A DNA stretch of 64,000 nucleotides from an uncultured Thermoleophilia bacterium (GCA_963702475.1 CAVPCT010000005.1:32001-96000); one strand, 5' to 3'; positions 1,919-32,669 are shown, counted from the first letter of the stretch. Translations and numbers: made by a program. Notes: generated by a model from the sequence alone, not told the origin.

Positions 1919-2056
1919 CGCCTTCCTCGCCGGCGCCCGCGTCCTCCAGGGCAGCGAACGGCTCTCAGCCCAGCAGTGCCGCCGCATTGTATCGGATGCC
2001 GATCCTGCGGCATGAGCCCAAGGGTCAGTTGACTCGTGCACCCTCGCGACGGCAGG

Positions 2057-2980: not shown

Positions 2981-4008
2981 TCACCGGCGGGTGCGGGTTC
3001 CTGGGCTGCAACCTGGCGGCCGCGTTGCTGCGCGATGGCGAAGACGTCATCGTCTTCGACAACCTCTCCCGCGCCGGATCCACCCAGAACCTCGAGTGGC
3101 TGCGCCTGATCGGAGATCCGGTGTTCCTTCACGGCGACGTGAGGTCTTGCGATGACGTCGATCACGCCGTCGCCAGCGTGAAGCCGGACGCCGTCCTCCA
3201 CCTCGCCGGCCAGGTGGCGATGACCACGTCGATCCTGCAGCCCATTCGCGACTTCCGGGTCAACAGCCTCGGCACCCTCAACGTGCTCGAGGCGGTGCGC
3301 GCCCACGCCTGCTCGGCCCCTGTCCTGTATTCGTCCACGAACAAGGTCTACGGGGATCTGGAGCAGTACAGGTACGATGAGACCGAGACGCGGTACGTGT
3401 GCCGGGACCGCCCGAACGGCTTCGACGAGAGTACCCCGCTCGACTTCCGGTCGCCGTACGGCTGCTCCAAGGGCGCCGCCGACCAGTACGTGCTCGACTA
3501 CCACCACACGTTCGGGCTGCGGACCGTCGTCTTCCGCCACTCGTCGATGTATGGAGGCCGCCAGTTCGCCACGGAGGACCAGGGCTGGGTCGGCTGGTTT
3601 TGCGCCCGGGCGCGCGACCTGCGCCGCGGCGAGAGCGACGGGGAGTTCACCATCTCGGGCAACGGCAAGCAGGTCCGCGACCTGCTCCACGCCGACGATA
3701 TGGTGACGTTGTACCGGGCGGCACTGGAGCACATCGACGCCGCCCAAGGCACGGTCTTCAACGTCGGCGGGGGGCCCGCCAACAGCCTCTCCCTCATCGA
3801 GCTGTTCCGGGAGCTCGAGACGTACGCGGGCCGACCGATCACCTGCCGTTCCCTGCCCCCTCGTCAGAGCGACCAGCGCGTCTTCATCGCGGACATCTCA
3901 AAAGCCAGACAGCGCCTGCACTGGGAGCCGCGCGTGGACCGGCAGACGGGGTTGGCACGCATGCTGGAGTGGGTCGAGGGCGACCCAGAGGGCCAGGACC
4001 GGCCCTGA
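2968..4008 (+). CDS. rfbE: CDP-paratose 2-epimerase (CDP-tyvelose synthase)
   Basis: [61 protein letters not shown]. Confidence 0.88.
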
Positions 4009-4025
4009 GCCGGCCCGCCGAAGCC

Positions 4026-5042
4026 GTGCACGAGCTCGCCGTCTGCGTCCCCACCTATGAGCGGGCCGGCTACCTCGAGGAGCTCGTGACGTCGTTCCTC
4101 GCCGGCCTCCCGGACTCCGTCCAGCTCGTGGTGAGCGACAACGCCTCCGCCGACGGCACTCAGTTGCTGATGGACGCGTGTGCGCGGCACGACGATCGCG
4201 TCAAGTACGTCCGTTCGCCGGTGAACCTGGGCCCGGACCGCAACTACCTGCGGGCCGTTGAGGCGGCCGATGCGCGCTACTGCTGGCTGTTCGGGAGCGA
4301 CGACCTGCCGTCGCCCGGCGCCCTGCGCCGCATCCTCGCCGTCATCTCCCAGACTGCGCCCGACATCCTGCTGTTCGACCGGGTGTGGTGCGACATCGCC
4401 ATGCGGCCGTTGCGCGGTGACGCCATGTTCAGCCCGCACCGGCCCTTGCTGTTCGACACCGCCCGCGTCGGGGGCTCGATCGCGTACCTGGACCATGCCG
4501 TGACGATCATGGCGCTCTTCAGCTACTTGTCGTCCATCGTCGTGAGCAAGGACCGATGGGACCGCACCGACCCGCGCGAGGAGTTCGTCGGCTCAGCGTA
4601 CGTCCACAGCGCCCGGCTGCTGTCCGTGCTCGATGAGGGCGCTCGCCTCTGCTATCTGCCGGAGGCGCTGGTGCGCTGCCGCGGCGACAACGACTTCTTC
4701 CTCGAGAAGGGTGCCTTCAACCGGGTCCGCATCGACCTGGCGGGGTACCGCCGGCTCAATGACACGTTCTTTCCGCACGGCCGCGCTCGCGCGGCGGCGC
4801 TGCGCGTGATGCGGCGTGAGTATGGCGCGCTGCGCCTGCTGCTCGTGCTGGCGACCGCCGACGACGGCGAGTGCGACGAACTGCTGCAGTACCTCGAGTA
4901 CTACGAGTACCCGCCGTCCCTCCGCCGGCTCCTGAGCCTCCTCAGCGAGCCGGCACCCAGAAGGCTCCTCGCGGCGGCGGCTCCCTGCGGTCGCCGTGCG
5001 TGGTGGGCGTGGCAGGCTGCGCGGGCGCACCACTCACCGTGA
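4026..5042 (+). CDS. GT2 glycosyltransferase, WbaV/RfbV-like 3,6-dideoxyhexosyl transferase
   Basis: CVPTYER, SDNASADGT, NLGPDRN, YCWLFGSDD, FSYLSSIVV, CRGDND; GTG start inferred. Confidence 0.75.
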   Translation: MHELAVCVPTYERAGYLEELVTSFLAGLPDSVQLVVSDNASADGTQLLMDACARHDDRVKYVRSPVNLGPDRNYLRAVEAADARYCWLFGSDDLPSPGALRRILAVISQTAPDILLFDRVWCDIAMRPLRGDAMFSPHRPLLFDTARVGGSIAYLDHAVTIMALFSYLSSIVVSKDRWDRTDPREEFVGSAYVHSARLLSVLDEGARLCYLPEALVRCRGDNDFFLEKGAFNRVRIDLAGYRRLNDTFFPHGRARAAALRVMRREYGALRLLLVLATADDGECDELLQYLEYYEYPPSLRRLLSLLSEPAPRRLLAAAAPCGRRAWWAWQAARAHHSP

Positions 5043-6319
5043 GCGAGCGCCTCGGCCTCGAGCGGACGGCCGCGCCCGCGTTCGCCCGCTCCGGCGTGGT
5101 CATGTTCGTCGGCAACACCCTCGCCGGGGTCTTCGTGTACGCCCTGCAGGTCGTCATGGGCCGCCTGCTGCAGGTGCAGGACTACGGCCTGTTCACGGCG
5201 CTGCTGGGCATCTTCAACGTCACGGCGCTGCCGCTCACGGCCCTCCTCCTGGTGGTGACGAGGGGCGTGGCCGGCGACCTCGGGCACGGGCGGCCCGGCG
5301 CTGCCGCGGCCCTGCGCAGGCAGGCGGTCCGCGAGCTCGCCCTCGGAGGCGGCGCTGTGGTGCTCGTGGCGCTCGCCCTGAGCCCGCTGTTCGCTCGCCT
5401 CCTCGACGCTCCCTCAGTCGTACCCGTCGCGCTGCTCTGGGTGGCCGTCGTGGTCAACCTGTTCACGGCCCTCGGATCCGCCGTGCTGCAGGGCATGAGC
5501 CGGTTCGCGACGCTGGCCGCGGTGAGCGCCGGCGTCGCGGCCGCGCGCCTCGCCGCGTGCGCGGCGCTCGTGGCGGCCGGGCTCGGGGTCGCCGGCTCCA
5601 TGGCCGGCCTCGTTGTGGCGGCCGCGGCCGGAGCCGCGGCCGCCTGGATCGTGGTCGAGCGAGCTCTGCCGGGGAGGATCAGCGACCACTCACGGCGACG
5701 GCTCTTCGCCTCGCGTGAGGGCTTGCTCCTCGCCACCAGCAACCTCGCCTTCATCGCCCTCACGCAGCTGGACTACATCATCGTGAGGGTCTTCTGCAGC
5801 CCTGACGAAGCCAGCCTGTACTCGGCCGGTGCTGTGCTCGCCAAGGCCGTGCTCTGGCTGCCGGTTGGCATCGCCATCGCCGTCTTCCCGACTGTGGCAA
5901 CGCATCAGGCGAGAGGGGAGCGCAGCAGGCACGTGCTCTTCCAGGCCCTCGGCATGGCGCTGCTCACCTCCGGCGCGCTGGCCGGCGTCCTGGCCGTGGG
6001 GGCCAAGTTCTGGATCGACCTGTTGTACGGTCCCGAGTACGCCGGAGCCGCCGTGTACCTCAGCTGGCTGAGCGTCGTCTACCTCCCGTTGGCCCTCGTG
6101 CTCGTGGTCGACAACTACCAGCTTGCACTCGGAAGGGCGAGGTTCATCTGGCTGTACGCCCTCGGCGCGGCCGCGCAGGTCGTCGTCTTCTCCGCCGTCG
6201 GCGGTACGCCGCTGCGACTCGTCTGGATCCTCGCGGCTGCCTCCGCCGCGTGCTTCGCCTGGGCCGTGTGGGTCGTGGCGAGCACCCGGGCCCGGCGACC
6301 GGCGGAAGCGGCCTCCTGA
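5039..6319 (+). CDS. Polysaccharide flippase (Wzx/MOP family)
   Basis: About 12 TM helices, YGLFTALL, LD..IVR and LLYGPEY patterns; GTGA overlap with upstream GT. Confidence 0.78.
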   Translation: MSERLGLERTAAPAFARSGVVMFVGNTLAGVFVYALQVVMGRLLQVQDYGLFTALLGIFNVTALPLTALLLVVTRGVAGDLGHGRPGAAAALRRQAVRELALGGGAVVLVALALSPLFARLLDAPSVVPVALLWVAVVVNLFTALGSAVLQGMSRFATLAAVSAGVAAARLAACAALVAAGLGVAGSMAGLVVAAAAGAAAAWIVVERALPGRISDHSRRRLFASREGLLLATSNLAFIALTQLDYIIVRVFCSPDEASLYSAGAVLAKAVLWLPVGIAIAVFPTVATHQARGERSRHVLFQALGMALLTSGALAGVLAVGAKFWIDLLYGPEYAGAAVYLSWLSVVYLPLALVLVVDNYQLALGRARFIWLYALGAAAQVVVFSAVGGTPLRLVWILAAASAACFAWAVWVVASTRARRPAEAAS

Positions 6320-6436: not shown

Positions 6437-7795
6437 TCAGACGGCGGCGTACGCGACCGTCTCGTACTGCAACTGGGTGTGGTGGCGCAGGTAGAGGCGG
6501 TACCCGGCATTGAGGCTGTCTATCCAGGCGGGCAGGCGCCACAGGTCCGCGGCCCGGTGATAGACGGCCACTGCCAGGACCGGGCGCGACGCCAGGATGG
6601 TGAGCCGGGCTCCGTTGAGCGCAGCCTCCTCGGCACCCTCCACGTCCAGCTTGATGTACGTCGCCCGCCGGCTGAGGGCATCGTCAAGGGAGACGATCGG
6701 CACGAGCCTGCGACCGTTCTCCCCGAAGGCTCCATCCATGCCTCCCGTGGGCGTGTACGAGCCGGTACCCGCACGGGCGCCGAGCCCCGCGCGGTGGACG
6801 CGCACCTGCGGCCAGCCGTCGAACCGCGCCTCGGCCCGCCCGCAGAGGTCCTCGTCAGGCTCGAACAGATCGAGCACCCTGCCGGGTCCAGCATTGCGGC
6901 GCACGAACTCGGCCGCGGAATCGCCGTCGTATGCCCCGCCATCAGCGTACCGCGCCTCCGGATCAGCCCGGAAGACTTCGGGCACGAACCACTGGTCGCC
7001 AGTGCACACCGACCGCAGGGGTTCGGATGCGAGAGTGACCCGGTGCCGCAGCACCGCAGCCAGCACGACTCTGGACCGGTCGTCGGCGAGCCGCGCAGCC
7101 AGGCCAAGGTACCTCACGGCGTTGTGTGCGAGGTCGGCCGCGTACCCGCGTTCCGGCTCCGCCGGCAGGCCGAGCAGGACGGTCAGCTCAGGGAGACTCA
7201 GCGGCCTGACCCCGAGGCGGGCGAGCTGCGCCAGGATGTCCTCGTGGTGCCGTCCGGTGCAGATGACGACCGTCGCCTCCCCGCGCGCCGCATCCTCCGG
7301 CTTCAGGACCGGAAGCCCGTCGACGGTGGCGCCGCGCAGGCCGGCGTCGTTGTCCAGAAAGCCGGCGGCCGGCCGGCCCTGCGCCGCCATGAGCCCAGCG
7401 ACCTGGCGGCCCACCAGGCCGGCCCCGAACAGCCACACCGGCCCTGAGGCGCCGCACGGGCCCACTCGTTCGCGGAGCGCCGCCTCCGCCTTGCCGCCGA
7501 CGACCGCCAGCAGCTCGGCCGCGAGGCCCGGCAGCCCGCCCACGAGGCGCACGACCTCGTCGAGGTCACGGCACTCCACGGCCCTGTCCCACTCCCACCA
7601 CGGACGGGGCCGGCGACGGAGTATGGCTCGAGCGCGCGCCCGCTGGGCTTCCGGCGTCGGGGGGTGCTCCGCCCCTGCCCACTCCGGCACCAGCTCGAAG
7701 CCCTCGCCGGCAAGCCGCCGGGCCGCAGCCGTAAGTTCCTCAGGACCGGGGGGGTCCGCCGCCGTCCGATCGAGGCTGAGGACCAGGGGCAGCAT
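6437..7795 (-). CDS. FkbM-family methyltransferase with N-terminal extension and Rossmann-like (FGAG..G) domain
   Basis: DGGAYDGDS, FEPD, YIKLDVEGAE, AVAVYH, LYLRHH; TGATG overlap with upstream GT2. Confidence 0.82.
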   Translation of the reverse strand: MLPLVLSLDRTAADPPGPEELTAAARRLAGEGFELVPEWAGAEHPPTPEAQRARARAILRRRPRPWWEWDRAVECRDLDEVVRLVGGLPGLAAELLAVVGGKAEAALRERVGPCGASGPVWLFGAGLVGRQVAGLMAAQGRPAAGFLDNDAGLRGATVDGLPVLKPEDAARGEATVVICTGRHHEDILAQLARLGVRPLSLPELTVLLGLPAEPERGYAADLAHNAVRYLGLAARLADDRSRVVLAAVLRHRVTLASEPLRSVCTGDQWFVPEVFRADPEARYADGGAYDGDSAAEFVRRNAGPGRVLDLFEPDEDLCGRAEARFDGWPQVRVHRAGLGARAGTGSYTPTGGMDGAFGENGRRLVPIVSLDDALSRRATYIKLDVEGAEEAALNGARLTILASRPVLAVAVYHRAADLWRLPAWIDSLNAGYRLYLRHHTQLQYETVAYAAV

Positions 7796-8862
7796 CACTC
7801 CGCGGCAGGTGCAGCGGGCAGCTGGGCGGTGGTCGCCGGCACGGATTCCCGCGCGACCTCCAACGGCGCGGCCGCCACGCCGCACGGTCCGCCTGTCGTG
7901 AGCAGCGGGATGGCGTCTGCAGCCTCGAAGTTGACCCGCTCCTTCTCCACGACGAGGGGCCGGTGCCGAACCTGCTCGAAGATCAGGCCGACGTACTCGC
8001 CCACCAGCCCGAGGCAGAACAGCTGCACCGCGGCGAAGAAGAACGTCCCGATGAGGATCGGGGCGGTGCCGACGGTGAACCAGTTCCAGAAGAGCAGTTT
8101 CGCGACGAGGTAGCCCACGGCGATGACGAAGAACACCGCGGCTATCAGCAGGCCCGCCAGGGTCATGATGCGCAGCGGCGTGCGCGAGTAGCTCGTGATG
8201 CCGAGCATGGCCAGGTCGAAGAGGTCGAAGAAGCTGTGGCGCGACTTGCCGTGCTTCCTCACAGGCTGCTCGTACTCCACGAAAGCCTTCTCGAAGCCGA
8301 TCTCGCTCACCATGCCACGGAAGTACGGGGCCGGGTCGTCAAGCGACCGGAGGATCTCGACGATCTGGCGGTCGAACAGCCCGAACCCTATGAAGTTGCG
8401 GATCTGCTCGACGTGCGACATCCGGCGGATCAGCGAGTAGAACGTCCGCCGGGCCAGGCGCAGCAACAGGCCCTCCTTGGCGCCCTTCCTGACGGCGATC
8501 ACCATGAGGTAGCCCTGCTCCCACAGCTCGACGAACCGGCCGATACAGCCGACCGGGGTCTGCAGATCGGCGACGAGCGGCACGACCGCGTCGCCGGTGC
8601 ACTGCAGCATGCCGTAGTAGGGCGACCGGCTCAGCCCGAAGTTGCGGCTGTTGACGATGATCTTGACGCGCCGGTCGGTGGCGGCGATCTCCTTCAGGAC
8701 GCGCACGGTGCCGTCGGTCGAGGCATTGTCGATGAAGACGTGCTCGAGGTCGTACTGCGGCAGGTGCGTCGCGAAGTAGTCCCGAACCGCCTCGTAGCAC
8801 TCCCGGATCCCTGGTTCTTCGTTATAGCAGGGGGTCAGGACCGAGATCGTTCTGCGTGTCAC
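7795..8862 (-). CDS. GT2 polyprenyl-phosphate glycosyltransferase (GtrB/ArnC/DPM-like)
   Basis: PCYNEE, IDNASTDGT, SRNFG, ADLQTP, R..GKS, two C-terminal TMs, LGLVGEYVG. Confidence 0.85.
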   Translation of the reverse strand: MTRRTISVLTPCYNEEPGIRECYEAVRDYFATHLPQYDLEHVFIDNASTDGTVRVLKEIAATDRRVKIIVNSRNFGLSRSPYYGMLQCTGDAVVPLVADLQTPVGCIGRFVELWEQGYLMVIAVRKGAKEGLLLRLARRTFYSLIRRMSHVEQIRNFIGFGLFDRQIVEILRSLDDPAPYFRGMVSEIGFEKAFVEYEQPVRKHGKSRHSFFDLFDLAMLGITSYSRTPLRIMTLAGLLIAAVFFVIAVGYLVAKLLFWNWFTVGTAPILIGTFFFAAVQLFCLGLVGEYVGLIFEQVRHRPLVVEKERVNFEAADAIPLLTTGGPCGVAAAPLEVARESVPATTAQLPAAPAAE

Positions 8863-10094
8863 CCCGTCACCGCCGTGCTCGGATAGCCGAAGCGCTGTAA
8901 GGACTGTCGAACCAGCTTCTCGATGTCATGGTCGCCGAACGGCACCGGGCCCTCCTTCTCGGCCCACACCCTGTCTGCCCTCACGCGAGCCACGATGTGA
9001 TTCTCCAATTCGCCCGAGGGCAGGCCGACCCTGCCGAGGCCGCCCGCGATGTGGCGTCGCAGGCCTGCCAAGTCGAAGGCGCGCACCCACCACGCCACGA
9101 GGTCGTCGAGGGTGGCGACGCCCGCTTCGGGCACCCGTGCCTCGAGCTGCGGCAGGAGGAGGGCGAGCCGGTCGGTGACCGCGTCCCTGTACCGGTCGAC
9201 CGCCGTCTCGAAGAACACGAACAGGGTCTCCGGATGCGACAGGGACGAGTGTTCGAGCAACGCGCCCGCCGCCTCGTGGATGTCGCCGGTGCGGACGTTC
9301 GAGATGGCCACCCCTCCGAGACTCGCCCCGTACTGGAGTTCGAGCAGGCCGTCGGCACGGGAGGGGCCACCCGCCAGGACGGTGCTCAGACCGTGGAGCA
9401 CGCGGCAGATGCCCTCCACGCTGAGCATCTCGTTGAACCAGGAACGCTCCCCCCTGCAGAGCAGCGACTCCCAGAGGTGCACGTAGGCGTCGAACGCGCA
9501 GGCAACCAGCAGGTCGAGCGGGCTCTCGAGAAGGAAGTGCGGGTCGAGCAGGACCCAGTCAGCGAGCAGGCGCCACGACTTGCCGTGGATCTTGGCGCGG
9601 GTCACGGAATCGTAGGTCACGTAGTAGCGGCTGGCCTCGGCGCCCGTGCCGGCCGTCGTCGGAAGCGCGACGAACAACGGACGCGCTGCGTCCGGGAGGA
9701 CCGGCATGCCGCGCCGCTCGCCCATGCCGACCCCGTCGTAGGTGCCGTAGAGCATCCCGGCCATGACCGCCTTCGCGGCGTCGATGGTGCTGCCGCCGCC
9801 AAGAGCCACGACAGCCGCCACGTCTCCCACGCCCTCCCTGAGGGCGGCATCGACGTCGCCGCTGAGGGGCATGCCCCGGACGACGCGCTCTGCCGTCAGA
9901 CGGAGCCCGAGGCGCTCGCGCAAGCCTTCCACGAAGGGCGCCGCCACGAACACCTCGTCCACCCACAGTGCCACGCTGGGTGCCACCCTCAGCAGGCCGT
10001 CGAGCTTCTCCCGGCACCCGAGCCCCCACACGAGCGTGGCCGGGCACGAGAACCGCTTGGTGGACGGGACGTTGTAGAAGGTCTCGAGGTCCAC
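8859..10094 (-). CDS. Iron-containing (group III) alcohol dehydrogenase family protein
   Basis: GGGSTIDAAK, PTTAGTGAE, putative metal ligands DAYVH, IHE, SHP. Confidence 0.8.
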   Translation of the reverse strand: MDLETFYNVPSTKRFSCPATLVWGLGCREKLDGLLRVAPSVALWVDEVFVAAPFVEGLRERLGLRLTAERVVRGMPLSGDVDAALREGVGDVAAVVALGGGSTIDAAKAVMAGMLYGTYDGVGMGERRGMPVLPDAARPLFVALPTTAGTGAEASRYYVTYDSVTRAKIHGKSWRLLADWVLLDPHFLLESPLDLLVACAFDAYVHLWESLLCRGERSWFNEMLSVEGICRVLHGLSTVLAGGPSRADGLLELQYGASLGGVAISNVRTGDIHEAAGALLEHSSLSHPETLFVFFETAVDRYRDAVTDRLALLLPQLEARVPEAGVATLDDLVAWWVRAFDLAGLRRHIAGGLGRVGLPSGELENHIVARVRADRVWAEKEGPVPFGDHDIEKLVRQSLQRFGYPSTAVTG

Positions 10095-10097
10095 CGC

Positions 10098-11006
10098 TCA
10101 CTCCTCCCCGGCGAGCAGCCACACGCGTTCGCGCAGCGTGTCGGGGTCGATCCCGGACTGGTGCGCCTCATACCACGCGTACAGGCCGGCGACCTCGCGC
10201 TCCAGCTCGTCCGGCCGCCACCCCGACTCGTCGCGGAAGAGGGAGGGATCGCCAACATAGGCAGCACCCCTGCTGGGACGATGCACTACGAGCCCGCAAT
10301 CGCGTCCCGACACGTCGATGACCAAGCGTGCCAGGTCGAGCAGTGACACTGGCGTGCCGCGGCACACGTTGTAGCTCGCGCACCGCGGCTCGTGCTCCAC
10401 GCACCACACCACCGCCGCCGCCACGTCGTCTACCGACACGTAATCGAAGAGCGAGTCCCTTCCGACCTCCACCGGCAGACCGAGAAGTGCGTGACAGCAG
10501 GCGTTGGAGACGAACCGCAGGCGCCAGTCCTCGCGCGGCCCGAACACGCCGAACAACGTCAGCGTGACGAACCCGGGCGTCGCCTCACAGTGCTTGCGGA
10601 TGAGGTACTTCGCGAATCCGTACTGGTCGGCCGGCACCACGTCGTCGAACTCGATCTCACGCACGCCGAGCAGCTCCCGGCCGCGGTCGTACTCCGCGCC
10701 GGACCCGAGATGGACGAGCCTTCCGAAGGAGCCGCGCTCCCGTGCGACGTTGTTGAACATCCTCAGCGTGTTCTCGAGCACGAGGCGAGGGTCCTTGCGC
10801 GACGTCGCCGTCGCGTCCCACGTGGCAGCGTGCACGACGACATCGAAGCGCCGGTGGCGCAGGTAGTCGCGCACCGCCGCACCGTCGAGCAGGTCGAGTT
10901 CGTCACTCGAGGGTGCGGCCACCACCTCGAACCGCGCCCGCAGCACCGCCTCGAGCGTGCTCCCGATGAAGCCGCTCCCGCCGGTAACGAGGACCCTGGC
11001 GCTCAC
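10098..11006 (-). CDS. NAD-dependent NDP-sugar reductase/epimerase (YerF-like position)
   Basis: GGSGFIG, GSGAEY, YGFAK, FGVFGP; directly after the ThDP enzyme. Confidence 0.75.
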   Translation of the reverse strand: MSARVLVTGGSGFIGSTLEAVLRARFEVVAAPSSDELDLLDGAAVRDYLRHRRFDVVVHAATWDATATSRKDPRLVLENTLRMFNNVARERGSFGRLVHLGSGAEYDRGRELLGVREIEFDDVVPADQYGFAKYLIRKHCEATPGFVTLTLFGVFGPREDWRLRFVSNACCHALLGLPVEVGRDSLFDYVSVDDVAAAVVWCVEHEPRCASYNVCRGTPVSLLDLARLVIDVSGRDCGLVVHRPSRGAAYVGDPSLFRDESGWRPDELEREVAGLYAWYEAHQSGIDPDTLRERVWLLAGEE

Positions 11007-11010
11007 GGCG

Positions 11011-12780
11011 TCACCCGTCCATGATGGCGGCGAACTCGCCCCTGTCGAGGAATGGCCAAAGGTCTTCGAAGGGGCTCGACAGGATGCGCCCGTCGGGGTC
11101 CACGGTCGTAGCGAGTCTCGGCTGTGTAGCCACGTCCGGCTGCACCATGAGCTCGCAGAACACGGGTCCCGGCTCGGACAAGGCTCGGCGCACACCTTCG
11201 GCGAGCTCCGCGTTCGCCTCAACGCGGAAGGCTGTCAACCTGTAGGCGCGAGCGAGATCCTGGAGATCGGGCAGCGTGAGGCCGCTGCTCGCGTCTGCCG
11301 CCAGCAGACCGCCGAAGTGGTGTCGCTGAGACGACCGAATCGACCCGTAGCCATCGTTGTTCAGCACGAAGAGCTTGACCGGCAGGCCGAGCCGGCGCAG
11401 GGTCTGCAGTTCCTGCACGTTGTGCTGGAGGCCGCCGTCCCCGATCACGCTGACGACCCGGCGGCCGCTCGCCACAGCCGCACCGATACTGGCCGGCAAA
11501 CCGAAGCCCATCGAGCCCAGGCCTGGTGAGTTGAACACCCGTTGCCCGGCCTTCACGCGGAAGGCCTGCAGAGTGATCTCCGCGCACCCTCCGGAGCTGC
11601 CCGGCACGAACACGTCCTCCTCCGAGAGCTCCTCGCTGAGGACGTCGACGAGGGCGTAAGTGTCGACGAGCCCGGTCTGGTCGTGCGATCCCTCCGGAAT
11701 GACAGGCCACCTGCGACGCCACTCACGGCAGCGTGCCAGCCAGCCGTCCCGGTCCTTCCATACCGTCGAGTGAGCCGACAGCTGGCGCAGGAACACTCCC
11801 GCGTCGCCCTGGACCGCGACCGTCATGTCGAAACGCAGCTTGGCGAGCTCGTCCGCGTCGGCATCGACGACGACCTTGCGGGCGCGAGGCGCGAAGCCGG
11901 CCGAGTCGAAGCCGATCTGCGCCAGGTCGAGACGTGCGCCGAGGACGATGACAAGGTCCGCCGTCTGCTGGGCGAAGTTGGCCGCCCGCTGACCGACGGA
12001 GCCGGGACGGCCGACGAACAGCGGGTGGTCGTTCGCCACGAAGTCGGCCGCCTTCCAGGTGGTGAGGAGCGGCAGGCCGACAGCTTCCAGCCACGCCAGG
12101 AACTCGCGGACGGCGCCGGCCTGGCGCACGCCGTTGCCGGCGAGCACGACCGGGCGGCGCGCCTCGGCGATCAGCTGCGCCGTCGCCGCCGCCGCCTGCG
12201 CGAGCTCCGCCTCGCCCGGACCAGACTCACACCCGTCTCCACCGGGCTCGAGTCCTTCGGTCTGTACGGTCGCCCCCTGCACGTCGAGCGGCACGTCGAT
12301 CCACACCGGGCCGGGACGCCCGGATCGGCAGGCAGCCAGGGCGTCGTCCAGGTGGCGCCGTATGGACTCCGGCTCCCGCACCAGTGCCGCGTACTTGGTG
12401 ATGGGGGCGACGAGCGCCGTGATGTCCACCTCCTGCACGCCCATCTGCCGCACGTGCCAGTCGGCGATCAGCTCGCCGGTCTTCGCTTGCCCGGACACGA
12501 CCACCACGGGGATGGAGTCGATCCACGACGCGGCCACGCCGGTGATGGCGTTGGTGGACCCCGGACCGGCGGTCACCAGCGCCGCGCCGATACCTCCGGT
12601 GTACTGGCTGTACGCGTCGGCCGCGATGGCCGCAGCCTGCTCGTGAAGGCAGACGACGGGGCTGAGGGCCTGCTGCGTGCGCAGCGCCTCCACGAGGTGC
12701 ATGCACCCGCCCCCCGGCAGGAAGAAGACGTGCCGCGTCTCCGCCGCGAGCCGCTGCATCACGTAGTCCGCGACCTTCAT
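11011..12780 (-). CDS. ThDP-dependent carboligase, acetolactate-synthase-like (YerE-like)
   Basis: MKVADY, GGGCMHL, HEQAA, TAGPGSTNA, RQMGVQE, GDGG...NN ThDP motif; sugar-cluster context. Confidence 0.82.
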   Translation of the reverse strand: MKVADYVMQRLAAETRHVFFLPGGGCMHLVEALRTQQALSPVVCLHEQAAAIAADAYSQYTGGIGAALVTAGPGSTNAITGVAASWIDSIPVVVVSGQAKTGELIADWHVRQMGVQEVDITALVAPITKYAALVREPESIRRHLDDALAACRSGRPGPVWIDVPLDVQGATVQTEGLEPGGDGCESGPGEAELAQAAAATAQLIAEARRPVVLAGNGVRQAGAVREFLAWLEAVGLPLLTTWKAADFVANDHPLFVGRPGSVGQRAANFAQQTADLVIVLGARLDLAQIGFDSAGFAPRARKVVVDADADELAKLRFDMTVAVQGDAGVFLRQLSAHSTVWKDRDGWLARCREWRRRWPVIPEGSHDQTGLVDTYALVDVLSEELSEEDVFVPGSSGGCAEITLQAFRVKAGQRVFNSPGLGSMGFGLPASIGAAVASGRRVVSVIGDGGLQHNVQELQTLRRLGLPVKLFVLNNDGYGSIRSSQRHHFGGLLAADASSGLTLPDLQDLARAYRLTAFRVEANAELAEGVRRALSEPGPVFCELMVQPDVATQPRLATTVDPDGRILSSPFEDLWPFLDRGEFAAIMDG

Positions 12781-12782
12781 CC

Positions 12783-13427
12783 TCACGAGGATCCCTCCGC
12801 TCCACACGCCGCGGTCGCCGTCGGGTCCGCGTGTGCGGGCTGGCGCACGAGGCCAGTGAGCTCCTCCAGGAGGTCGCTCACCGGCCTCCCCGCATCCGCG
12901 TTCCACGGCCGCGGGAACAGGAGTCCACGCAGCCCCAGGGCCAGCGCCGCAGTCACGTTCTCCGGGCCGTCGTCGACGAGGACGTCCGCGCCGCCGAACC
13001 AGGCCAGCCATTGCCCCTTGTCGCGCTCCGGCGGACCGGGAGGATCACCCGGGCGCGCCGACGGCACCACATGGACGCCGCGGATCCAGCGTCCGTAGTG
13101 ACGCAGCACCCATTCCGCCGACACGTGCACGGCGTGCAGCGGCACGGCGGTGAGAGCCAGGTGACGAGCCTCTCCGCCGTGCGCCTCGAACCAGGCGAGC
13201 ACGTCCGGACGCGGCGGCTGCGACGCGTACGCACCGCTGTGCCGGTAGGCGTCGAGAGACTCCAGATACGCCTCCCGGGTGGTCCCCAGCACCACCTCCG
13301 GCGGCGCGCCGGCGAGGCCGTCGAAGCATGCGACGCAGTCGGGATGCCCCGGCAGCCACGCCTCGGCGAACCAGAGCGCCGCGAGGTCGTTCAGCACGTC
13401 GTCGACGTCCCAGACAATCGTCAGCAT
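12783..13427 (-). CDS. HAD-superfamily phosphatase (5'-nucleotidase/NT5C-like)
   Basis: WDVDDVL motif I, LTA, DK, LVDD, PWN. Confidence 0.7.
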   Translation of the reverse strand: MLTIVWDVDDVLNDLAALWFAEAWLPGHPDCVACFDGLAGAPPEVVLGTTREAYLESLDAYRHSGAYASQPPRPDVLAWFEAHGGEARHLALTAVPLHAVHVSAEWVLRHYGRWIRGVHVVPSARPGDPPGPPERDKGQWLAWFGGADVLVDDGPENVTAALALGLRGLLFPRPWNADAGRPVSDLLEELTGLVRQPAHADPTATAACGAEGSS

Positions 13428-13439
13428 CGAGTCACCGGG

Positions 13440-14963
13440 TCAGTGCGGCGGCGCCACAAGCCAGTCGGCCCAGAACGTCATCTCGGTCTTGCGGTGAGCG
13501 TTCGCGCCGACCGCATCGTCCTCGTAGTACGAGTCGTCCTTGTGGTGCGTCGTCGAGATCTCCTCGATGATCACGCCGTCGACCGTGGAGAAGGCGTGCG
13601 GCACGTGTCGCTCGACCACGGCGACCTCGCCGGCCCCATAGGTGTGGTCCTCCCCGTCCAGGGTGAGCGTCATGTCCCCGTACAGCACGTGGAAGGTCTC
13701 CTCCTTGATCTTGTGCGCGTGGGAGGGGTGCCGCTGCCCGGGGACCAAGATGAGCAGCTTCTTGCAGTACTCGCGGTTCACGATGTTGATGATGCAGGCG
13801 CCGCACTCCTCGAAACGCTCGATGCCGTAGTGGTGCGAGATCTCGAAGTCGAGACGGTCCGGCAGCGCGATCCCCGAGTCACGGAGCAGGACGCTGACCT
13901 GCGTCACGATCTCGAGGATCCGGTCGCGGCGGTCCTCACGGGCGACGGTGGCAACGGTCAGCGCCTCGTCGGCGGCGACGGGCCCCAGCGTGGTCAGCAC
14001 CGCGTACTTGGAGAGGTCGTTGGCCACCACCTGGTCGTCCGCGCACGGGATGGCGAGGAACACGTCGTCCATGGTGACTCGATGTCCGACGGGCAGTGCG
14101 GTGCGGGCGAAGGCGCCGCGCTTCAGCCCGCGCAGGTCGTCGAGTTCCTTCGCGGGCAGATCGCGCCGGCGCCCGCTCACGCCGCACATCAGATAGGCCT
14201 GCTCCGCCGACTCGAGCCACGCGCGCACCTGCCCGGGGTCGGCCGAATAGGCGTTCTTGCGATACCGCTCGGTGGGCAGGGCGACGTGCTTCTCGAAGAT
14301 CGTTGCACCCTTCGCGATCGCGAGCCGCACCGCCTCAGTTTCGTCCGGGGGCTCGTGCGTGGAGTACCCCACGGAGGCGCGCGGATAGCGTTCGCGCAGC
14401 AGGTCGATCTGGTTGAGCTCGAGGTGTTCGGGCGCGGTCGGGTACTCGCCGACGCAGTGCATGAGCGCGAACTCCTTGTCGCGGTGTTCCAGGAACAAGG
14501 CGACGCGGTCGATCTCGTCCAAGGCCTCGCCGGCCGTGGATGCGATGACCGGCAGGTCCGTCTGCACGACACGCTCGAGGAGCGGCCAGTCCGTCAACGA
14601 GCAGCTCGCCACCTTGAGGATGTCGTAGCCCTCCTCCGCGACCCGCTGGACGGAGACTTCGTCGAACGGAGTGCACACCGCGAGCATGCCGTGCTCGCGA
14701 ACGCGCTCACGCAGCCGGCGGAACTCGTCGCCGCTCAGCCGGGTCTCGCTGAAGCGCTTGACGTACTTGACGTCCTCCCTGCCCCGGTAGGCAGGGTGGA
14801 TGAACGTGTCGAGGTCGCGATACTGGAACTTGACCGCGAAGCGGAACGGCAGGCCGGACGACGCGTCGTGCAAGGCGTCGATGAGGCGCAGGCCGTGCTC
14901 CACATCGCCCATGTGGTTGTTGGCCATCTCGAAGATGAACAACGGTCGTGTGTCAGCGAACAT
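13440..14963 (-). CDS. NeuB-family PEP-dependent ulosonate synthase + SAF domain + D-lyxose-isomerase-like cupin fusion
   Basis: EMANNH, KFQ, TPFD, KVAS, MHCVGEYP, GYSTHE, EKH; C-terminal YCKKLL..PGQRHPSHAHKIKEETF. Confidence 0.82.
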   Translation of the reverse strand: MFADTRPLFIFEMANNHMGDVEHGLRLIDALHDASSGLPFRFAVKFQYRDLDTFIHPAYRGREDVKYVKRFSETRLSGDEFRRLRERVREHGMLAVCTPFDEVSVQRVAEEGYDILKVASCSLTDWPLLERVVQTDLPVIASTAGEALDEIDRVALFLEHRDKEFALMHCVGEYPTAPEHLELNQIDLLRERYPRASVGYSTHEPPDETEAVRLAIAKGATIFEKHVALPTERYRKNAYSADPGQVRAWLESAEQAYLMCGVSGRRRDLPAKELDDLRGLKRGAFARTALPVGHRVTMDDVFLAIPCADDQVVANDLSKYAVLTTLGPVAADEALTVATVAREDRRDRILEIVTQVSVLLRDSGIALPDRLDFEISHHYGIERFEECGACIINIVNREYCKKLLILVPGQRHPSHAHKIKEETFHVLYGDMTLTLDGEDHTYGAGEVAVVERHVPHAFSTVDGVIIEEISTTHHKDDSYYEDDAVGANAHRKTEMTFWADWLVAPPH

Positions 14964-16344
14964 AGCCGGCTCCGTCCTTTGCATTGGCCTCCACCGCCGC
15001 CACCGTCGCGGCCGCCATGTACTCAATCATCTCGCCGGTCAGCCCCGGATACACGCCAACCCAGAACGCCTCGTCCATGAGCCGGTCCGTCTCGGTGAGC
15101 TCGCCGGCGATGCGGTAGCCGGCGCCGGCGCCTGGCTTGCCTGCGGCACGCATGCCGTCGAAGCATGGCTGCCGTACCATGTTGCCCGCGAACAACATGC
15201 GGGTCTGGACCCTCGCGGCCTCGAGTTGCGACACGATGCCGGCGCGCGTCAGGCCGGCGGCCTTCGCCTCCTCCGTCAGCGTGAGCAGGAGGCCGAACCA
15301 GCTCGGCTCGGAGCCTGGCGTCGGCTCCTGCACGTGCAGCAGACGCGAGACCGGCGCGAGCAGGCGCGACAGGGTCGCGTGATGCTCGCGCCGCAGGCGT
15401 GTGAACTCGGGCAGGCGGCCGAGCTGGGCACAGCCCACGGCCGCCTGCATCTCCGTCACCTTGAGGTTGTAGCCGAACTCACCGAAGACATACTTGTGGT
15501 CGTAGCCGTACGGTAACGTGCCGAACTGGTGGCTGAAGCGGTGGCCGCACCTGTCGTCCTGGCCGCTCCGGCAGATACAGTCCCGGCCCCAGTCGCGGAG
15601 CGAGGCGACGATCGCGGCAAGCCGCTCGTCGTCGGTGTAGACGGCGCCGCCCTCGCCGAGCGTCATGTGGTGCGGCGGGTAGAAGCTCGAGGTCGCGACA
15701 TCGCCGAACGTGCCGGTCGCGCGGCCCCGGTACAGTGACCCGAGCGCGTCGCAGTTGTCCTCGATGAGCCAGAGACCGTGCCTCTCACAGAGTCCCAGCA
15801 CGGCGTCCACGTCGAACGGGTCTCCGAGCGTGTGCGCCAGGAAGACGGCGCGCGTCCGCGGAGTGACGGCCGCGGCCAGAGCCTCCGTATCCACGTTCGC
15901 CGTGTCACCCCGTACGTCCACGAACACCGGCACTGCGCCGTACTGGACGATGGGGGCGACCGTCGTGGGAAAGCCGGCCGCCACCGTGAGGACCTCGTCC
16001 CCGCGGGCGAGACGCCGTTCCCCGAGCTTCTCGGACGTGAGCGCCATGAAGGCGAGAAGGTTGGCCGAGGAGCCCGAGTTGACCAGCACGCAGTGGCGTA
16101 CGCCGAGGTATGCGGCGAGCTCGGCCTCGAAACGCTCGGAGTAGCGGCCGTAGGTCAACCAGAAGTCGAGAGCAGCGTCGACGAGCAGGTCGAGCTCCTC
16201 CGCGCCGAACACCCGGCCGCCATAGGGCACCCGCGTCTCGCCGGGCACGAACTCGCGTGGCGCCCCCCAGGTGGCCTCGTGATACTCGGCCACCAGGGCG
16301 CGGATCGCCGCGCGCAGCTCCTCGCTGCTTGACGGCGCGCTCAC
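14953..16344 (-). CDS. rfbH: CDP-4-keto-6-deoxyglucose 3-dehydrase (E1, DdhC)
   Basis: NSGSSANL, EDNCDALG, SFYPPHH (His replaces the PLP Lys), GRDCIC...C Fe-S motif, YDHKY. Confidence 0.92.
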   Translation of the reverse strand: MSAPSSSEELRAAIRALVAEYHEATWGAPREFVPGETRVPYGGRVFGAEELDLLVDAALDFWLTYGRYSERFEAELAAYLGVRHCVLVNSGSSANLLAFMALTSEKLGERRLARGDEVLTVAAGFPTTVAPIVQYGAVPVFVDVRGDTANVDTEALAAAVTPRTRAVFLAHTLGDPFDVDAVLGLCERHGLWLIEDNCDALGSLYRGRATGTFGDVATSSFYPPHHMTLGEGGAVYTDDERLAAIVASLRDWGRDCICRSGQDDRCGHRFSHQFGTLPYGYDHKYVFGEFGYNLKVTEMQAAVGCAQLGRLPEFTRLRREHHATLSRLLAPVSRLLHVQEPTPGSEPSWFGLLLTLTEEAKAAGLTRAGIVSQLEAARVQTRMLFAGNMVRQPCFDGMRAAGKPGAGAGYRIAGELTETDRLMDEAFWVGVYPGLTGEMIEYMAAATVAAVEANAKDGAGYVR

Positions 16345-17510
16345 AGTACCGCCCCCGTGGCGACCCAAGACGCACCTGCACTCGCGGCGGCATTCCCGTA
16401 GGCCGCCACATCCTCGCGGCAAAGCTCCGCCAGCCGCTCGGCGCCGGAGCCGCCGGCCCACGCGGCGTACCAGCGCATCGTGGCCGCGACCGTCTCGTCC
16501 ACGTCCCACACCGGCCGCCAGCCGAGCTCGCGCTCGGCCTTGCCGGCGTCCAGCACCAGCAGCCCCGCCTCGTGCCGCTGCTCGGCCGCTCCCGGCGCGG
16601 GCCGCCATTCCCCCGCGCCCCACGCCTGAAGAACGGCCTCGACGACCTCACGGACCGTGACGAGGCAGGCGGCGCCGGGGCCGAAGTTCCAGGCGCCGGA
16701 GGCCGGGCCTGTGGACCGCTCGCCGGCCTCCCGTCCTTCCAGCAAGGCGGCGGCTAGACACAGGTACCCGGAGAGCGGCTCCAGTACGTGCTGCCAGGGG
16801 CGCACCGCCTGCGGACTGCGCACCTCCACGACGTCTCCGCGCACCAGCGCTCGCACGCAGTCGGGAACGATTCGATCCTCGCCCCAGTCACCCCCTCCAA
16901 GGACGTTGCCGGCACGGGCCGACGCGACCGCCGGGCTCTCCGACCCAGCGAAGTAGCTGCGCCGGTAGGCCGAGGTAACGAGCTCAGAACAGGCTTTGCT
17001 CGAGCTGTACGGGTCGTAGCCGCCCAGCGCATCGCTCTCCACGTAGGCGCGTCTGGTCTCCAGGTTCTCATAGCACTTGTCGGTGGTCACGTTGACCACG
17101 GCACGCGGCCCCCGTCCCGCGCCCACGGACTCCCGCACGGCCTCCAGGAGGTTCACCGTACCGATCACGTTGGTCTCGTACGTGAGGCGAGGCTCCAGAT
17201 AGGAACGCCGCACCATGGGCTGTGCGGCAAGGTGGAGGACTATCTCCGGCTCCGTCTCGGCGACCACCCGGCGCAGGCCGCCGGCATCTCGCACGTCGCC
17301 TCGACGGTCGTCAAGGAGCCCACCGTACTGCGCCAGCCCGATCGCCTCGAACAGGTTCGGCTCCGTCGGTGGATCCAAGGCGTACCCGGTGACCTGCGCT
17401 CCCAGCTCGAGCAGCCACAACGTGAGCCACGAGCCCTTGAAGCCCGTGTGGCCGGTCACGAGCATGCGTCGCCCGCGGAACACGCCCCCGAACGTCACCA
17501 CGTCTTCCAT
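16341..17510 (-). CDS. rfbG: CDP-glucose 4,6-dehydratase
   Basis: TGHTGFKGSWL, HLAAQP, TDKCY, DPYSSSK, RAGNV, RPWQHVLEPL. Confidence 0.95.
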   Translation of the reverse strand: MEDVVTFGGVFRGRRMLVTGHTGFKGSWLTLWLLELGAQVTGYALDPPTEPNLFEAIGLAQYGGLLDDRRGDVRDAGGLRRVVAETEPEIVLHLAAQPMVRRSYLEPRLTYETNVIGTVNLLEAVRESVGAGRGPRAVVNVTTDKCYENLETRRAYVESDALGGYDPYSSSKACSELVTSAYRRSYFAGSESPAVASARAGNVLGGGDWGEDRIVPDCVRALVRGDVVEVRSPQAVRPWQHVLEPLSGYLCLAAALLEGREAGERSTGPASGAWNFGPGAACLVTVREVVEAVLQAWGAGEWRPAPGAAEQRHEAGLLVLDAGKAERELGWRPVWDVDETVAATMRWYAAWAGGSGAERLAELCREDVAAYGNAAASAGASWVATGAVL

Positions 17511-18268
17511 GGCGCCTTCCCGGAGTCCCAAAGCTCTTCGAGCAGGCGTTTTTCGCGCAGCGTATCCATCGGCTGCCAGAAGCCATTGTGACGATACGCG
17601 CCGAGCTGACCGTCGGCGGCGAGGTGCTCCAGGGGCTCCTGCTCGAACACGATGTGGTCGCCCTCGATGTAGTCCAGTACGCCGGGCTCGAGCACGAAGA
17701 AGCCGCCGTTCATCCAGGCGCCGTCGCCGCGCGGCTTCTCGATGAAGCAGCTCACCTCGGCCTCGTCCTCGCCCAACTCGAGCGCGCCGAAGCGCCCCGG
17801 TGGCTGTACTGCCGTCACCGTCGCCAGTCGCCCGTGCTGCTCGTGGAAGGCGAGCAGCGCGTGCAGGTCCACGTCGGAGACGCCGTCGCCGTAGGTCATC
17901 ATGAAGCGCTGCCCGTCGAGATACCGCGCGACACGCTTGACGCGGCCGCCCGTGTCGGTGAGCGCCCCTGTGTCGACCAGGGTCACGCGCCACGGCTCCA
18001 CCGCGTTCTCATGCACCTCCATACCTTGCCCCTGCAGGTCGAAGGTCACGTCGCAATTGTGCAGGAAGTAGTTGGCGAAGTACTCCTTGATCACGTAGCC
18101 CTTGTAGCCCAGGCAGATGACGAAGTCGCAGAACCCCTGCTCCCCATACCCCTTCATGATGTGCCAGAGGATCGGGAACTCACCGATCTCGGCCATGGGC
18201 TTGGGCTTGACCTGCGTCTCCTCGGCGAGACGTGTGCCGAGGCCGCCGGCGAGGATGACGACCTTCAT
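17495..18268 (-). CDS. rfbF: Glucose-1-phosphate cytidylyltransferase
   Basis: LAGGLGTRL, KPKPM, GYKGYVIKEYF, TYGDG, NGGFF, FWQPMDTLR; GGAGG RBS. Confidence 0.95.
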   Translation of the reverse strand: MKVVILAGGLGTRLAEETQVKPKPMAEIGEFPILWHIMKGYGEQGFCDFVICLGYKGYVIKEYFANYFLHNCDVTFDLQGQGMEVHENAVEPWRVTLVDTGALTDTGGRVKRVARYLDGQRFMMTYGDGVSDVDLHALLAFHEQHGRLATVTAVQPPGRFGALELGEDEAEVSCFIEKPRGDGAWMNGGFFVLEPGVLDYIEGDHIVFEQEPLEHLAADGQLGAYRHNGFWQPMDTLREKRLLEELWDSGKAPWKTW

Positions 18269-18401: not shown

Positions 18402-19736
18402 TCAAGCGAGCGCCACCCTGAGCGTCCAGGCCACGGATACCGCCACGACGGCGGCCCAGCGCAGGATGTCGACGCGCCCCACCGGCCGTCCACCCGCCGC
18501 GACGAGAGCGAGCAGGCTGAGGAGCACCGCGAAATCAACGTAGCGCTGGAACCACACGGTGTTCGCGGCCGTACTGAGCACGACGGCCAGCAGCGCGGCA
18601 ACGAACAGCCGGTCCACGGGCTCCCTGGTACGGGTGAGCGCCAGAGCCGCCAGAACGGCGAGCCCGGCCGGCACGCACAGCCACCACACGATGCTGACGC
18701 CGCCGACGCCCGGCCAGGCGTCGAGCAGCGGACTCAGCAGCCCGATCCCGTACGGATCGCGACCGCCCAGCTCACCCATGCCCCCGATGGCGACGGCGAC
18801 CACACCGAGCACAATCGCCGCGAGCACGGCGGCGAGCCCGCGGCGGCCCAGGCGCGACGGAAGCTCCCGCACCTCGGCGGCGGGCGCCAGCAGGACCCCC
18901 CACACGCCGACGACTGCGAGGCTCAACAGGACACTGTGCAGGCGCGCGGAGGCCGGCTCCGTTTGTGCGCTCCCCGAGGGCAGCAGTCCGCCCCAGCTGA
19001 CGAGGAGTGCCGCGAGGGGCACCAGACCGGCGGCGACGAACGCGAGAGCGACCAACTTGCGTCGCGGCGTACAGGCGGCCGCGGCGACCGCGACCACAGC
19101 GGGCACGTACAGCCACACGGCGACCTGACGCATGAGGCTGGCAACGCAGGCACACACGACCGCGAGCGCGAACCGCCACAGCTGAGGCGTGCGGACCCAC
19201 GCCACGAGGCCCGCCAGCGACAGCACCACGAACAGCCAGGTGGGGTTGTCCGTGAGCACGTAGAACGACTCACCGAAGAAGAACGGCGAGACTGCCAGCA
19301 TGAAGGCGAACGCGAGGGCGACAGCCGGCCGCGCCTTGAGCCCGTCGCGGAACAGCTCGTAGGCGGCGACGCACGTCGCCCACGACAGGACGGCCACGAC
19401 GACCCGGGTGGCCTCCAGTGAGGAGCCGAGCGGGCGGGCGAGCCCCGCGAGCAGCCAGTACACCAGAGGCCCTGACCAGGACTCATACCCGTTCGTCACC
19501 AGCCGGGGCCAGGCTGCCGCCACCCGCTCCACAGCCCCGTAGAAGTGGTGCAGCTCGTCGTACGACTGGTAGACCTGGAACGGGTGCCTCAGCCCACCGC
19601 TGGCGACCACGACGGCGACGAAGGGCAGGGCGAGCGCAATGACGTGGACGAGCCGGGAGGTCGCGAGCAGACGCCGAAGGTCGCGGCGGCGGGAGACAGC
19701 CGGCCCGCCGCTCACCGCCACGTGGTCGCCAGCCAT
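18402..19736 (-). CDS. Multi-pass membrane protein, putative GT-C glycosyltransferase (PMT/ArnT/ALG10-like)
   Basis: YDE acidic loop after TM1, SPFFFGESFYVLTD, RQ, FQRY; about 11-13 TMs. Confidence 0.62.
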   Translation of the reverse strand: MAGDHVAVSGGPAVSRRRDLRRLLATSRLVHVIALALPFVAVVVASGGLRHPFQVYQSYDELHHFYGAVERVAAAWPRLVTNGYESWSGPLVYWLLAGLARPLGSSLEATRVVVAVLSWATCVAAYELFRDGLKARPAVALAFAFMLAVSPFFFGESFYVLTDNPTWLFVVLSLAGLVAWVRTPQLWRFALAVVCACVASLMRQVAVWLYVPAVVAVAAAACTPRRKLVALAFVAAGLVPLAALLVSWGGLLPSGSAQTEPASARLHSVLLSLAVVGVWGVLLAPAAEVRELPSRLGRRGLAAVLAAIVLGVVAVAIGGMGELGGRDPYGIGLLSPLLDAWPGVGGVSIVWWLCVPAGLAVLAALALTRTREPVDRLFVAALLAVVLSTAANTVWFQRYVDFAVLLSLLALVAAGGRPVGRVDILRWAAVVAVSVAWTLRVALA

Positions 19737-31479: not shown

Positions 31480-31509
31480 GCTCTCCTTCGCAGGTCTCGC
31501 GGGAGTGTA

Positions 31510-32638: not shown

Positions 32639-32669
32639 GGCTCCGGAGCGGAGGTCCGGGCCGCGCGGC

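Follow-up and report, generated by a model that had tools for sequence, protein, structure and literature searches.

A 64,000-nucleotide (nt) stretch of DNA from an uncultured Thermoleophilia bacterium (GCA_963702475.1, CAVPCT010000005.1:32001-96000; the window in the following) carries on its minus strand, at positions 6437-18268, an operon that we read as a cytidine diphosphate (CDP)-sugar pathway for a long-chain C4-branched 3,6-dideoxyhexose. The donor of the branch would be made by a phosphoenolpyruvate (PEP)-dependent NeuB module and not by a pyruvate aldolase, a reading to which we assign a probability of roughly 55%. We infer every step past CDP-4-keto-3,6-dideoxyglucose, and the donor used by the thiamine diphosphate (ThDP) enzyme is deduced from synteny and published precedent.

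The operon and its conserved core

The initial annotation had described a minus-strand run of rfbFGH, a NeuB/cupin gene, a haloacid dehalogenase (HAD)-type gene and genes for a ThDP enzyme, a reductase, an iron alcohol dehydrogenase (Fe-ADH), a family 2 glycosyltransferase (GT2) and an FkbM protein. All ten genes are present at their annotated coordinates according to Pfam and NCBIfam calls, forming one uninterrupted run in the order RfbF, RfbG, RfbH, NeuB-cupin fusion, HAD, ThDP enzyme, short-chain dehydrogenase/reductase (SDR), Fe-ADH, GT2 and FkbM (Table 1). Every junction is either an overlap of 4-16 nt or a gap of 2-12 nt, as determined from start and stop positions; rfbG begins with an ATG at 17510, before rfbF has ended, and the GTG start of rfbH overlaps the rfbG stop codon. 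The region is thus confirmed to be an operon of ten tightly coupled genes.

A scan of species genomes gave 257 relatives of the NeuB-cupin fusion, from which 80 loci were kept, many of them on short contigs. Neighbouring genes were identified by tblastn with the window proteins and counted within 10 kb in the 80 loci as well as in a full-flank subset of 51 loci having at least 6 kb on either side of the fusion. A ThDP gene accompanies the fusion in 67 of the 80 loci and in 49 of the 51 full-flank loci, the exceptions in the latter being L046 and L065, where none was found. RfbH follows with 66/80 and 44/51, RfbF with 59/80 and 44/51, RfbG with 56/80 and 39/51, and the HAD gene with 46/80 and 30/51. 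The remaining genes are less frequent: GT2 (28/80; 22/51), SDR (15/80; 9/51), FkbM (14/80; 12/51), Fe-ADH (2/80; 1/51) and the membrane glycosyltransferase of the GT-C type located upstream of the operon (0/80; 0/51). The ThDP gene lies on the same strand as the fusion in 49/49 cases and 9-1584 nt downstream of it in 45/49. This association is not due to chance; it bears out the predicted co-occurrence of NeuB-cupin fusions with YerE-like ThDP genes, and the fusion is the marker of a conserved cassette with a six-gene core.

Other frequent neighbours are Zn-type C-methyltransferases (27 loci), radical-SAM/SPASM proteins (27 and 14 loci), another methyltransferase (22 loci), NUDIX proteins (22 loci) and an ArnC-like GT2 (22 loci). 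Many cassettes, L014, L022, L038 and L080 among them, combine C-methyltransferases, one or two radical-SAM/SPASM proteins and a NUDIX protein, from which more extensive tailoring than that by the window genes can be expected. HAD and NUDIX genes occur together in 10 of the 80 loci, for which reason we reject them as alternatives for one phosphatase role.

The fusion family is large, with at least 7683 matches among 8000 candidates scored in a word-indexed search, a number that may include ordinary NeuB relatives; the best 120 relatives comprise 490-537 amino acids (aa) and all combine NeuB with Cupin_2. The 80 loci span about 19 named phyla, including groups of the candidate phyla radiation (CPR) and one archaeon, and the carriers include the cultured bacteria Azonexus hydrophilus (L006) and Enterovirga aerilata DB1703 (L073). 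The archaeal case is a contig of a Candidatus Methanoperedens metagenome-assembled genome (L034), on which the fusion is followed by RfbH; the contig ends 4 kb past the fusion, and a binning error is possible. Within the class of the window organism the cassette is patchy, since the full fusion occurs in just 2 of 201 sampled genomes, namely the source assembly and a congener; an order-level sample around genome G003 gave fusion-length frames only.

We also compared RfbH loci within the phylum of the window organism, where 17 of 401 sampled genomes contain RfbH above the cut-off. In the 16 loci other than the window a ThDP gene adjoins in five cases. One of these loci, L111, has a NeuB-cupin fusion, and its ThDP enzyme is 48% identical to that of the window. 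Another one, L110, has the order rfbFGH-SDR-ThDP with an HpcH/HpaI aldolase gene directly after the ThDP gene, and L113, L114 and L121 have a ThDP gene with neither fusion nor aldolase. Fusion and aldolase were found together in none of the five ThDP-bearing loci.

Enzymes of the operon

RfbF, RfbG and RfbH all exceed the cut-offs of their NCBIfam models (Table 1), and by these scores their identities are at equivalog level. The product of the three enzymes is, by established knowledge, CDP-4-keto-3,6-dideoxy-D-glucose.

The ThDP enzyme scored highest in the PDB with 8rph (365 bits), to which it aligns over residues 2-583, followed by 5ahk (255 bits), which we take to be YerE from Pseudomonas protegens, and by acetohydroxyacid synthases (AHAS; at most 235 bits). 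It remains below all acetolactate synthase equivalog cut-offs of NCBIfam, and the true IlvB of the genome is located elsewhere (TIGR00118, 803 bits). By these scores the enzyme is not the true acetolactate synthase of the genome, and it is predicted, as in the initial annotation, to be a YerE-like, ketone-accepting carboligase that is nearer to JanthE than to AHAS. [quoted passage not shown] The two enzymes differ in the ThDP-binding motif, which is GDG in the window enzyme and CDG in JanthE. In five of the NeuB-linked ThDP enzymes, most of them from proteobacteria, the canonical GDG is replaced by SDG (L005, L006, L063, L071, L073), and in three from Opitutaceae by GEG (L066, L075, L076).

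In a phylogenetic tree of 72 ThDP enzymes the 69 RfbH-linked ones, including that of the window, form one clade with a support of 100, apart from IlvB. Within this clade 59 NeuB-linked enzymes group together (support 84), and the enzymes from L110, L113 and L114 form a separate group (support 99). The tree is at odds with phylum boundaries, which, together with the patchiness of the cassette, is consistent with horizontal spread.

The NeuB domain of the fusion falls far short of the equivalog models TIGR03569 (122 bits, cut-off 400) and TIGR03586 (100 bits, cut-off 340); judged by these profiles it is not an ortholog of N-acetylneuraminic acid (Neu5Ac) synthase or pseudaminic acid synthase, and forms a separate subfamily. 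Its closest solved structure is the orphan 3g8r (373 bits). The domain aligns with NeuB (1xuu) including the PEP and metal motifs, with the His residues of both 'SDH' and 'ERH', which bind the metal in NeuB enzymes, and the NeuB core thus looks competent. The fusion is the sole NeuB-family gene in its genome. A SAF domain, which the initial annotation had placed in the protein, is confirmed only in part: it has no Pfam match in the window protein itself, PF08666 is precomputed in the homologues P0007, P0037 and P0092, and the alignment to 3g8r reaches residue 337.

The C-terminal cupin domain was aligned with 43 homologues, and an AlphaFold2 (AF2) model was generated with a predicted local distance difference test (pLDDT) score of 91. 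In Foldseek, D-lyxose isomerases take the first six places (2y0o and 7nzo/7nzp/7nzq; two of these structures were solved with D-fructose or D-mannose), with template modelling (TM) scores of 0.67-0.71 over 167-178 columns, i.e. over the full length. Likewise, an hmmsearch with the cupin profile finds D-lyxose isomerases with E = 1.7e-14 and 1.9e-11. The motifs PEH.H, K.ETF, H and EE.S align between the cupin and the D-lyxose isomerases, and the aligned His, Lys and Glu residues of the cupin are invariant in the 44 sequences. Fold and profile thus assign the cupin to the D-lyxose/D-mannose-type aldose-ketose isomerase family, in line with the earlier suggestion that it makes an aldose. A KdgF-like ring-opening role was set aside, as KdgF appears only in 23rd place in Foldseek, behind the lyxose isomerases, and matches half of the domain. 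An isomerase of the lyxose/mannose type fits its fusion to a NeuB-type synthase because the known acceptors of NeuB-family enzymes are manno-configured aldoses.

The protein encoded between the fusion and the ThDP enzyme has no Pfam or NCBIfam match, and its sequence alone gave no significant match in the PDB (best E = 1); a profile gave a weak match to a HAD protein (E = 0.0025). Among 42 sequences the motif residues D7, D9, K137 and D153 of a HAD signature (D7xD9, T93, K137, D152/D153) are invariant, and T93 and D152 are conserved to at least 90%. Together with the fold of an AF2 model (pLDDT 93.6) this motif conservation identifies the protein as a predicted HAD phosphatase.

As to the remaining genes of the operon, the SDR is a candidate side-chain ketoreductase and likely corresponds to YerF/ErwF; SDRs that are 35-40% identical to it are present both in the aldolase-type locus L110 and in the NeuB-type locus L111. 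The Fe-ADH is a lineage-specific tailoring enzyme. The GT2 has PgfS (178 bits) and ArnC (120 bits) as best NCBIfam matches, both under the cut-off. The GT-C enzyme encoded directly upstream of rfbF, of the PMT_2 type, probably carries out the last transfer of the lipid-linked sugar, and a PMT_2 gene adjoins rfbF in L110 as well. Delivery of the sugar to a polymer or protein of the surface, with polyprenyl phosphate as carrier, is suggested by the ArnC/PgfS-like GT2 together with the GT-C beside the operon.

Proposed route and alternatives

In the proposed route RfbF, RfbG and RfbH would provide CDP-4-keto-3,6-dideoxy-D-glucose as the acceptor. In parallel, the cupin would isomerise a ketose to a lyxo- or manno-configured aldose (candidates being D-lyxose from D-xylulose and D-mannose from D-fructose), either free or phosphorylated, and the fused NeuB domain would condense this aldose with PEP to a C8 or C9 3-deoxy-2-ulosonic acid, with the HAD enzyme stripping off phosphate before or after the isomerase and NeuB steps. 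The JanthE/YerE-like enzyme would then decarboxylate the ulosonate and add the acyl-anion equivalent to the C4 ketone, resulting in a tertiary alcohol with a polyhydroxy-acyl branch, which, given an acid of eight or nine carbons, would be C7 or C8 for a pentose or a hexose as NeuB acceptor, respectively. Subsequently, the SDR would reduce the branch ketone, Fe-ADH and FkbM would tailor the product, the GT2 would load the sugar on polyprenyl phosphate and the adjacent GT-C would pass it on to a surface glycan or protein. The simplest reading of the cassette is that the isomerase-NeuB fusion, often together with the HAD enzyme, replaces an aldolase as the maker of the 2-oxo acid.

Several points weigh against this route. 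3-Deoxy-2-ulosonic acids are mostly cyclic hemiketals, and it is the open keto form on which a ThDP enzyme depends, an objection that the gastriose pathway as published shares. The D-lyxose isomerases characterised so far work on free sugars, which puts the phosphate logic in doubt. The HAD gene is missing from 21 of the 51 full-flank loci, and the Foldseek matches of the HAD model, C1-capped HAD phosphatases at a TM score of about 0.6, give no clue to its substrate. The operon shows no reductase of the E3/AscD type as a partner for RfbH, the genome not having been searched for one. The NeuB-linked ThDP enzymes are not cleanly one clade, as six CPR sequences and that of L056 fall into a polytomy with the enzymes from loci with an aldolase or with neither acid-forming gene. 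Finally, a CTP_transf_3 gene stands beside the ThDP gene in two of the 80 cassettes (L025:12069-12938 and L056:6009-6854), and in these two lineages the ulosonate may also be activated with cytidine monophosphate (CMP).

We searched for CMP-ulosonate synthetases of the NeuA/KdsB type with a CTP_transf_3 profile built from 20 genes of carrier genomes, those of L025 and L056 among them. None was found in the window, as had been noted initially, and the absence extends to the 4.3-Mb, 93.8% complete genome, where the single, weak PF02348 match is a cross-match to a GlmU-like protein with NTP_transferase and Hexapep domains. In 78 of the 80 related loci no CTP_transf_3 gene was found either. These results bear on the possibility that the cassette makes two products, the ThDP enzyme using pyruvate to form a yersiniose-type sugar while fusion and HAD enzyme make an acid similar to 3-deoxy-D-glycero-D-galacto-non-2-ulosonic acid (KDN), which would be activated in a non-canonical way and enter the same glycan. 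Sialic acid and KDN pathways do classically begin with a NeuB enzyme and a phosphatase, the two cassettes with a CTP_transf_3 gene would agree with such a scheme, and JanthE takes pyruvate too (PMC12188165). Against it speak the lack of a NeuA/KdsB-type match in the window, the genome and nearly all loci, and the fact that PF02348 is wholly unmatched in 4 of 48 carrier genomes tested, all of them small. Moreover, unrelated pathways would not require a linkage of ThDP gene and fusion as tight as 49 of 51. We therefore regard two separate products as unlikely.

An aldolase as source of the 2-oxo acid was sought as well. With the L110 aldolase as tblastn query no HpcH homologue was detected in the window or the 80 loci, BphI/DmpG-type aldolases not having been queried separately, and no aldolase family appears among the annotated open reading frame (ORF) clusters of the 80 loci, clusters c17, c18, c22, c23 and c27-c29 (4-7 loci each) being unannotated.

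The order of events might also be reversed, with the HAD or a NUDIX enzyme freeing the dideoxy-aldose from the nucleotide sugar, branched or not, and NeuB extending it with PEP to a higher ulosonic acid, or else NeuB extending a branch-borne aldehyde. The legionaminic and pseudaminic acid pathways run in this order, and NUDIX genes are present in 22 of the 80 loci, accompanied by HAD in ten. However, the fused isomerase suggests that the aldose derives from a ketose and not from a nucleotide sugar, the product would need activation by CMP, for which no gene was found, and a GT2 of the ArnC/PgfS type requires a nucleotide sugar as donor, rendering this order quite improbable.

A third alternative concerns the reaction of the ThDP enzyme, which might only decarboxylate the NeuB product to a 2-deoxy-aldose that Fe-ADH or SDR would reduce, the CDP-dideoxyhexose being a separate sugar of the same glycan. 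The succession of a ThDP decarboxylase and an Fe-ADH recalls phosphonate pathways, and the best NCBIfam match of the Fe-ADH is indeed the phosphonate-type PsrA model, with 85 bits far below its cut-off. Yet the Fe-ADH accompanies the fusion in only 2 of the 80 loci, and the ThDP enzyme groups with YerE-like carboligases and is linked to RfbH in 44 of the 51 full-flank loci, so that a mere decarboxylase is very improbable.

The grafting of a ulosonate onto the CDP-sugar, as put forward in the initial annotation, is hence partly supported by the 49/51 co-occurrence, the isomerase cupin, the relation of the ThDP enzyme to JanthE and the missing CMP-synthetase, and is the explanation that we consider best; its comparison of the product with caryophyllose and erwiniose does not hold, because those sugars have the wrong size (see below). 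Tentatively, and with somewhat less than even odds, the cassette may represent an unrecognised and very widespread route to branched sugars of 13-14 carbons, present in about 19 phyla, in which an acid similar to KDN or to 3-deoxy-D-manno-oct-2-ulosonic acid (KDO) would serve as acyl-anion donor and not as glycosyl unit. If so, the ulosonate would be the physiological donor still missing for JanthE-type enzymes, which are under development as biocatalysts for tertiary alcohols, and the route would constitute a second, PEP-driven way to feed YerE-like carboligases. It would also assign a role to the large 'N-acetylneuraminate synthase family / cupin' group, whose members are now annotated as sialic acid makers. 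It would further predict C13-C14 branched deoxysugars on the surfaces of many uncultured lineages, and the NeuB-cupin fusion would be a convenient marker with which to find this sugar class by genome mining. A branched C14 sugar, aurantose, is known from Spirochaeta aurantia, and the route would indicate the likely genetic basis of sugars of this type; aurantose is a lead only, as our literature search found neither the S. aurantia glycolipid nor the aurantose structure, the key S. aurantia paper lying outside its coverage.

Genomic setting

The window has a high GC content of about 70%, and its GC profile gives no sign of an island boundary. The contig is long and carries core genes and even GC around the operon; the assembly (4.3 Mb) has an estimated contamination of 6.5%. 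Upstream of the operon the GT-C gene is followed by cdsA, uppS, frr, tsf and rpsB. On the downstream side two SDR genes, a GT2 gene and an ORF for a multi-pass membrane protein run convergently on the plus strand and probably belong to the same glycan locus. The membrane ORF has no Pfam match and possibly encodes a flippase. Housekeeping genes make up the remaining content of the window.

An ORF of 713 aa bordering the glycan region failed the filter for GC at third codon positions (GC3) and, given the high GC, may be spurious. A gene for a tyrosine recombinase of the XerC/D type (25704-26723, minus strand) and a sigma-70 family gene (24875-25666) separate rpsB from the next block, and two signal peptidase I genes are located near each other (30901-31509 and 32072-32812, minus strand).

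Table 1. Features of the operon and its surroundings, with positions counted from the first nucleotide of the window.
Feature	Position	Strand	Basis or remark
713-aa ORF at edge of glycan region	32-2173	-	no Pfam match
Convergent set: two SDR epimerase/dehydratase genes, GT2, multi-pass membrane ORF	2036-6319	+	ends 118 nt from FkbM gene
FkbM-family methyltransferase with N-terminal extension	6437..7885	-	PF05050 and TIGR01444; start possibly ATG at 7795
GT2 polyprenyl-phosphate glycosyltransferase, ArnC/PgfS-like	7795..8862	-	PF00535
Group III iron alcohol dehydrogenase (Fe-ADH)	8859..10094	-	PF00465, 79.6 bits
SDR reductase	10098..11006	-	PF01370
Predicted YerE/JanthE-like ThDP-dependent carboligase	11011..12780	-	three ThDP domains: PF02776, PF00205, PF02775
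Predicted HAD-superfamily phosphatase, C1-capped, 214 aa	12783..13427	-	motif conservation and fold
NeuB+Cupin_2 fusion, 507 aa	13440-14963	-	Pfam
D-lyxose/D-mannose-isomerase-like cupin domain, fusion residues 336-507	13440..13958	-	fold and profile
NeuB-type PEP-dependent ulosonate synthase domain, fusion residues 1-340	13944..14963	-	PF03102, 139 bits
RfbH (E1), CDP-6-deoxy-4-keto-glucose 3-dehydrase	14953..16344	-	NF011936, 651 bits (cut-off 423)
RfbG, CDP-glucose 4,6-dehydratase	16341..17510	-	TIGR02622, 443 bits (cut-off 278)
RfbF, glucose-1-phosphate cytidylyltransferase	17495..18268	-	TIGR02623, 424 bits (cut-off 300)
GT-C type membrane glycosyltransferase (PMT_2), directly upstream of rfbF	18402..19736	-	PF13231, 33.8 bits

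Comparison with known systems

Over its entire length the cupin domain of the fusion has the fold of the known D-lyxose/D-mannose isomerases (2y0o; 7nzo, 7nzp, 7nzq), and it shares their His/Lys/Glu motifs. Those enzymes, however, are free-standing proteins of about 170-200 aa, whereas here the isomerase-like domain, 20-22% identical to them, makes up the C-terminal part of a NeuB protein. What sialic acid and KDN pathways have in common with the cassette is a PEP-condensing enzyme of the NeuB fold with conserved motifs and an adjacent HAD phosphatase; the cassette differs from them in a synthase that lies far under the NeuB/PseI cut-offs and is fused to an isomerase, and in that no CMP-synthetase was found.

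The yersiniose A pathway of Yersinia pseudotuberculosis uses the same acceptor sugar and, likewise, a ThDP carboligase (YerE) followed by a reductase (YerF), as described in PMC9306805. YerE uses pyruvate as donor, giving a C2 branch, and needs no acid-forming partner, and the window enzyme is nearer to JanthE than to 5ahk. Closer parallels are provided by the clusters ErwE/ErwF/ErwI/ErwJ, MMAR_2331-2333 and MyGE/MygI/MygF, which share with the cassette rfbFGH-type genes, a YerE-like ThDP enzyme and an NAD(P)H reductase. According to Steitz 2022 (PMC9306805) functionalised 2-oxo acids of C4-C8 serve ErwE, MMAR_2332 and MyGE as substrates, a pyruvate aldolase gene adjoins the ThDP gene in their clusters, and erwiniose, caryophyllose and gastriose can be explained by grafting the acid onto CDP-4-keto-3,6-dideoxyglucose and subsequent reduction.

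Long functionalised 2-oxo acids as donors of YerE-like enzymes, with an aldolase as their source, are thus already published (PMC9306805), and the PEP-dependent source, a NeuB-isomerase protein, is the sole candidate novelty of the cassette. No paper within our literature search, which included PMC12247030 and PMC12188165, connects YerE-like branching with a NeuB-type synthase or a cupin, the original JanthE paper and the supplement of Steitz 2022 lying outside its coverage. Like the erwiniose, caryophyllose and gastriose clusters, and like L110 within the same phylum, the cassette would have a dedicated 2-oxo-acid-forming enzyme next to the ThDP gene. In the published clusters a pyruvate aldolase (HpcH/HpaI or BphI type) provides this acid, whereas here the NeuB-isomerase fusion, often together with a HAD phosphatase, would take its place. 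The predicted branch of C7-C8, resulting from a pentose or hexose acceptor, would be longer than that of caryophyllose (C6) or erwiniose (C4), the comparators chosen in the initial annotation, and comparable to that of gastriose.

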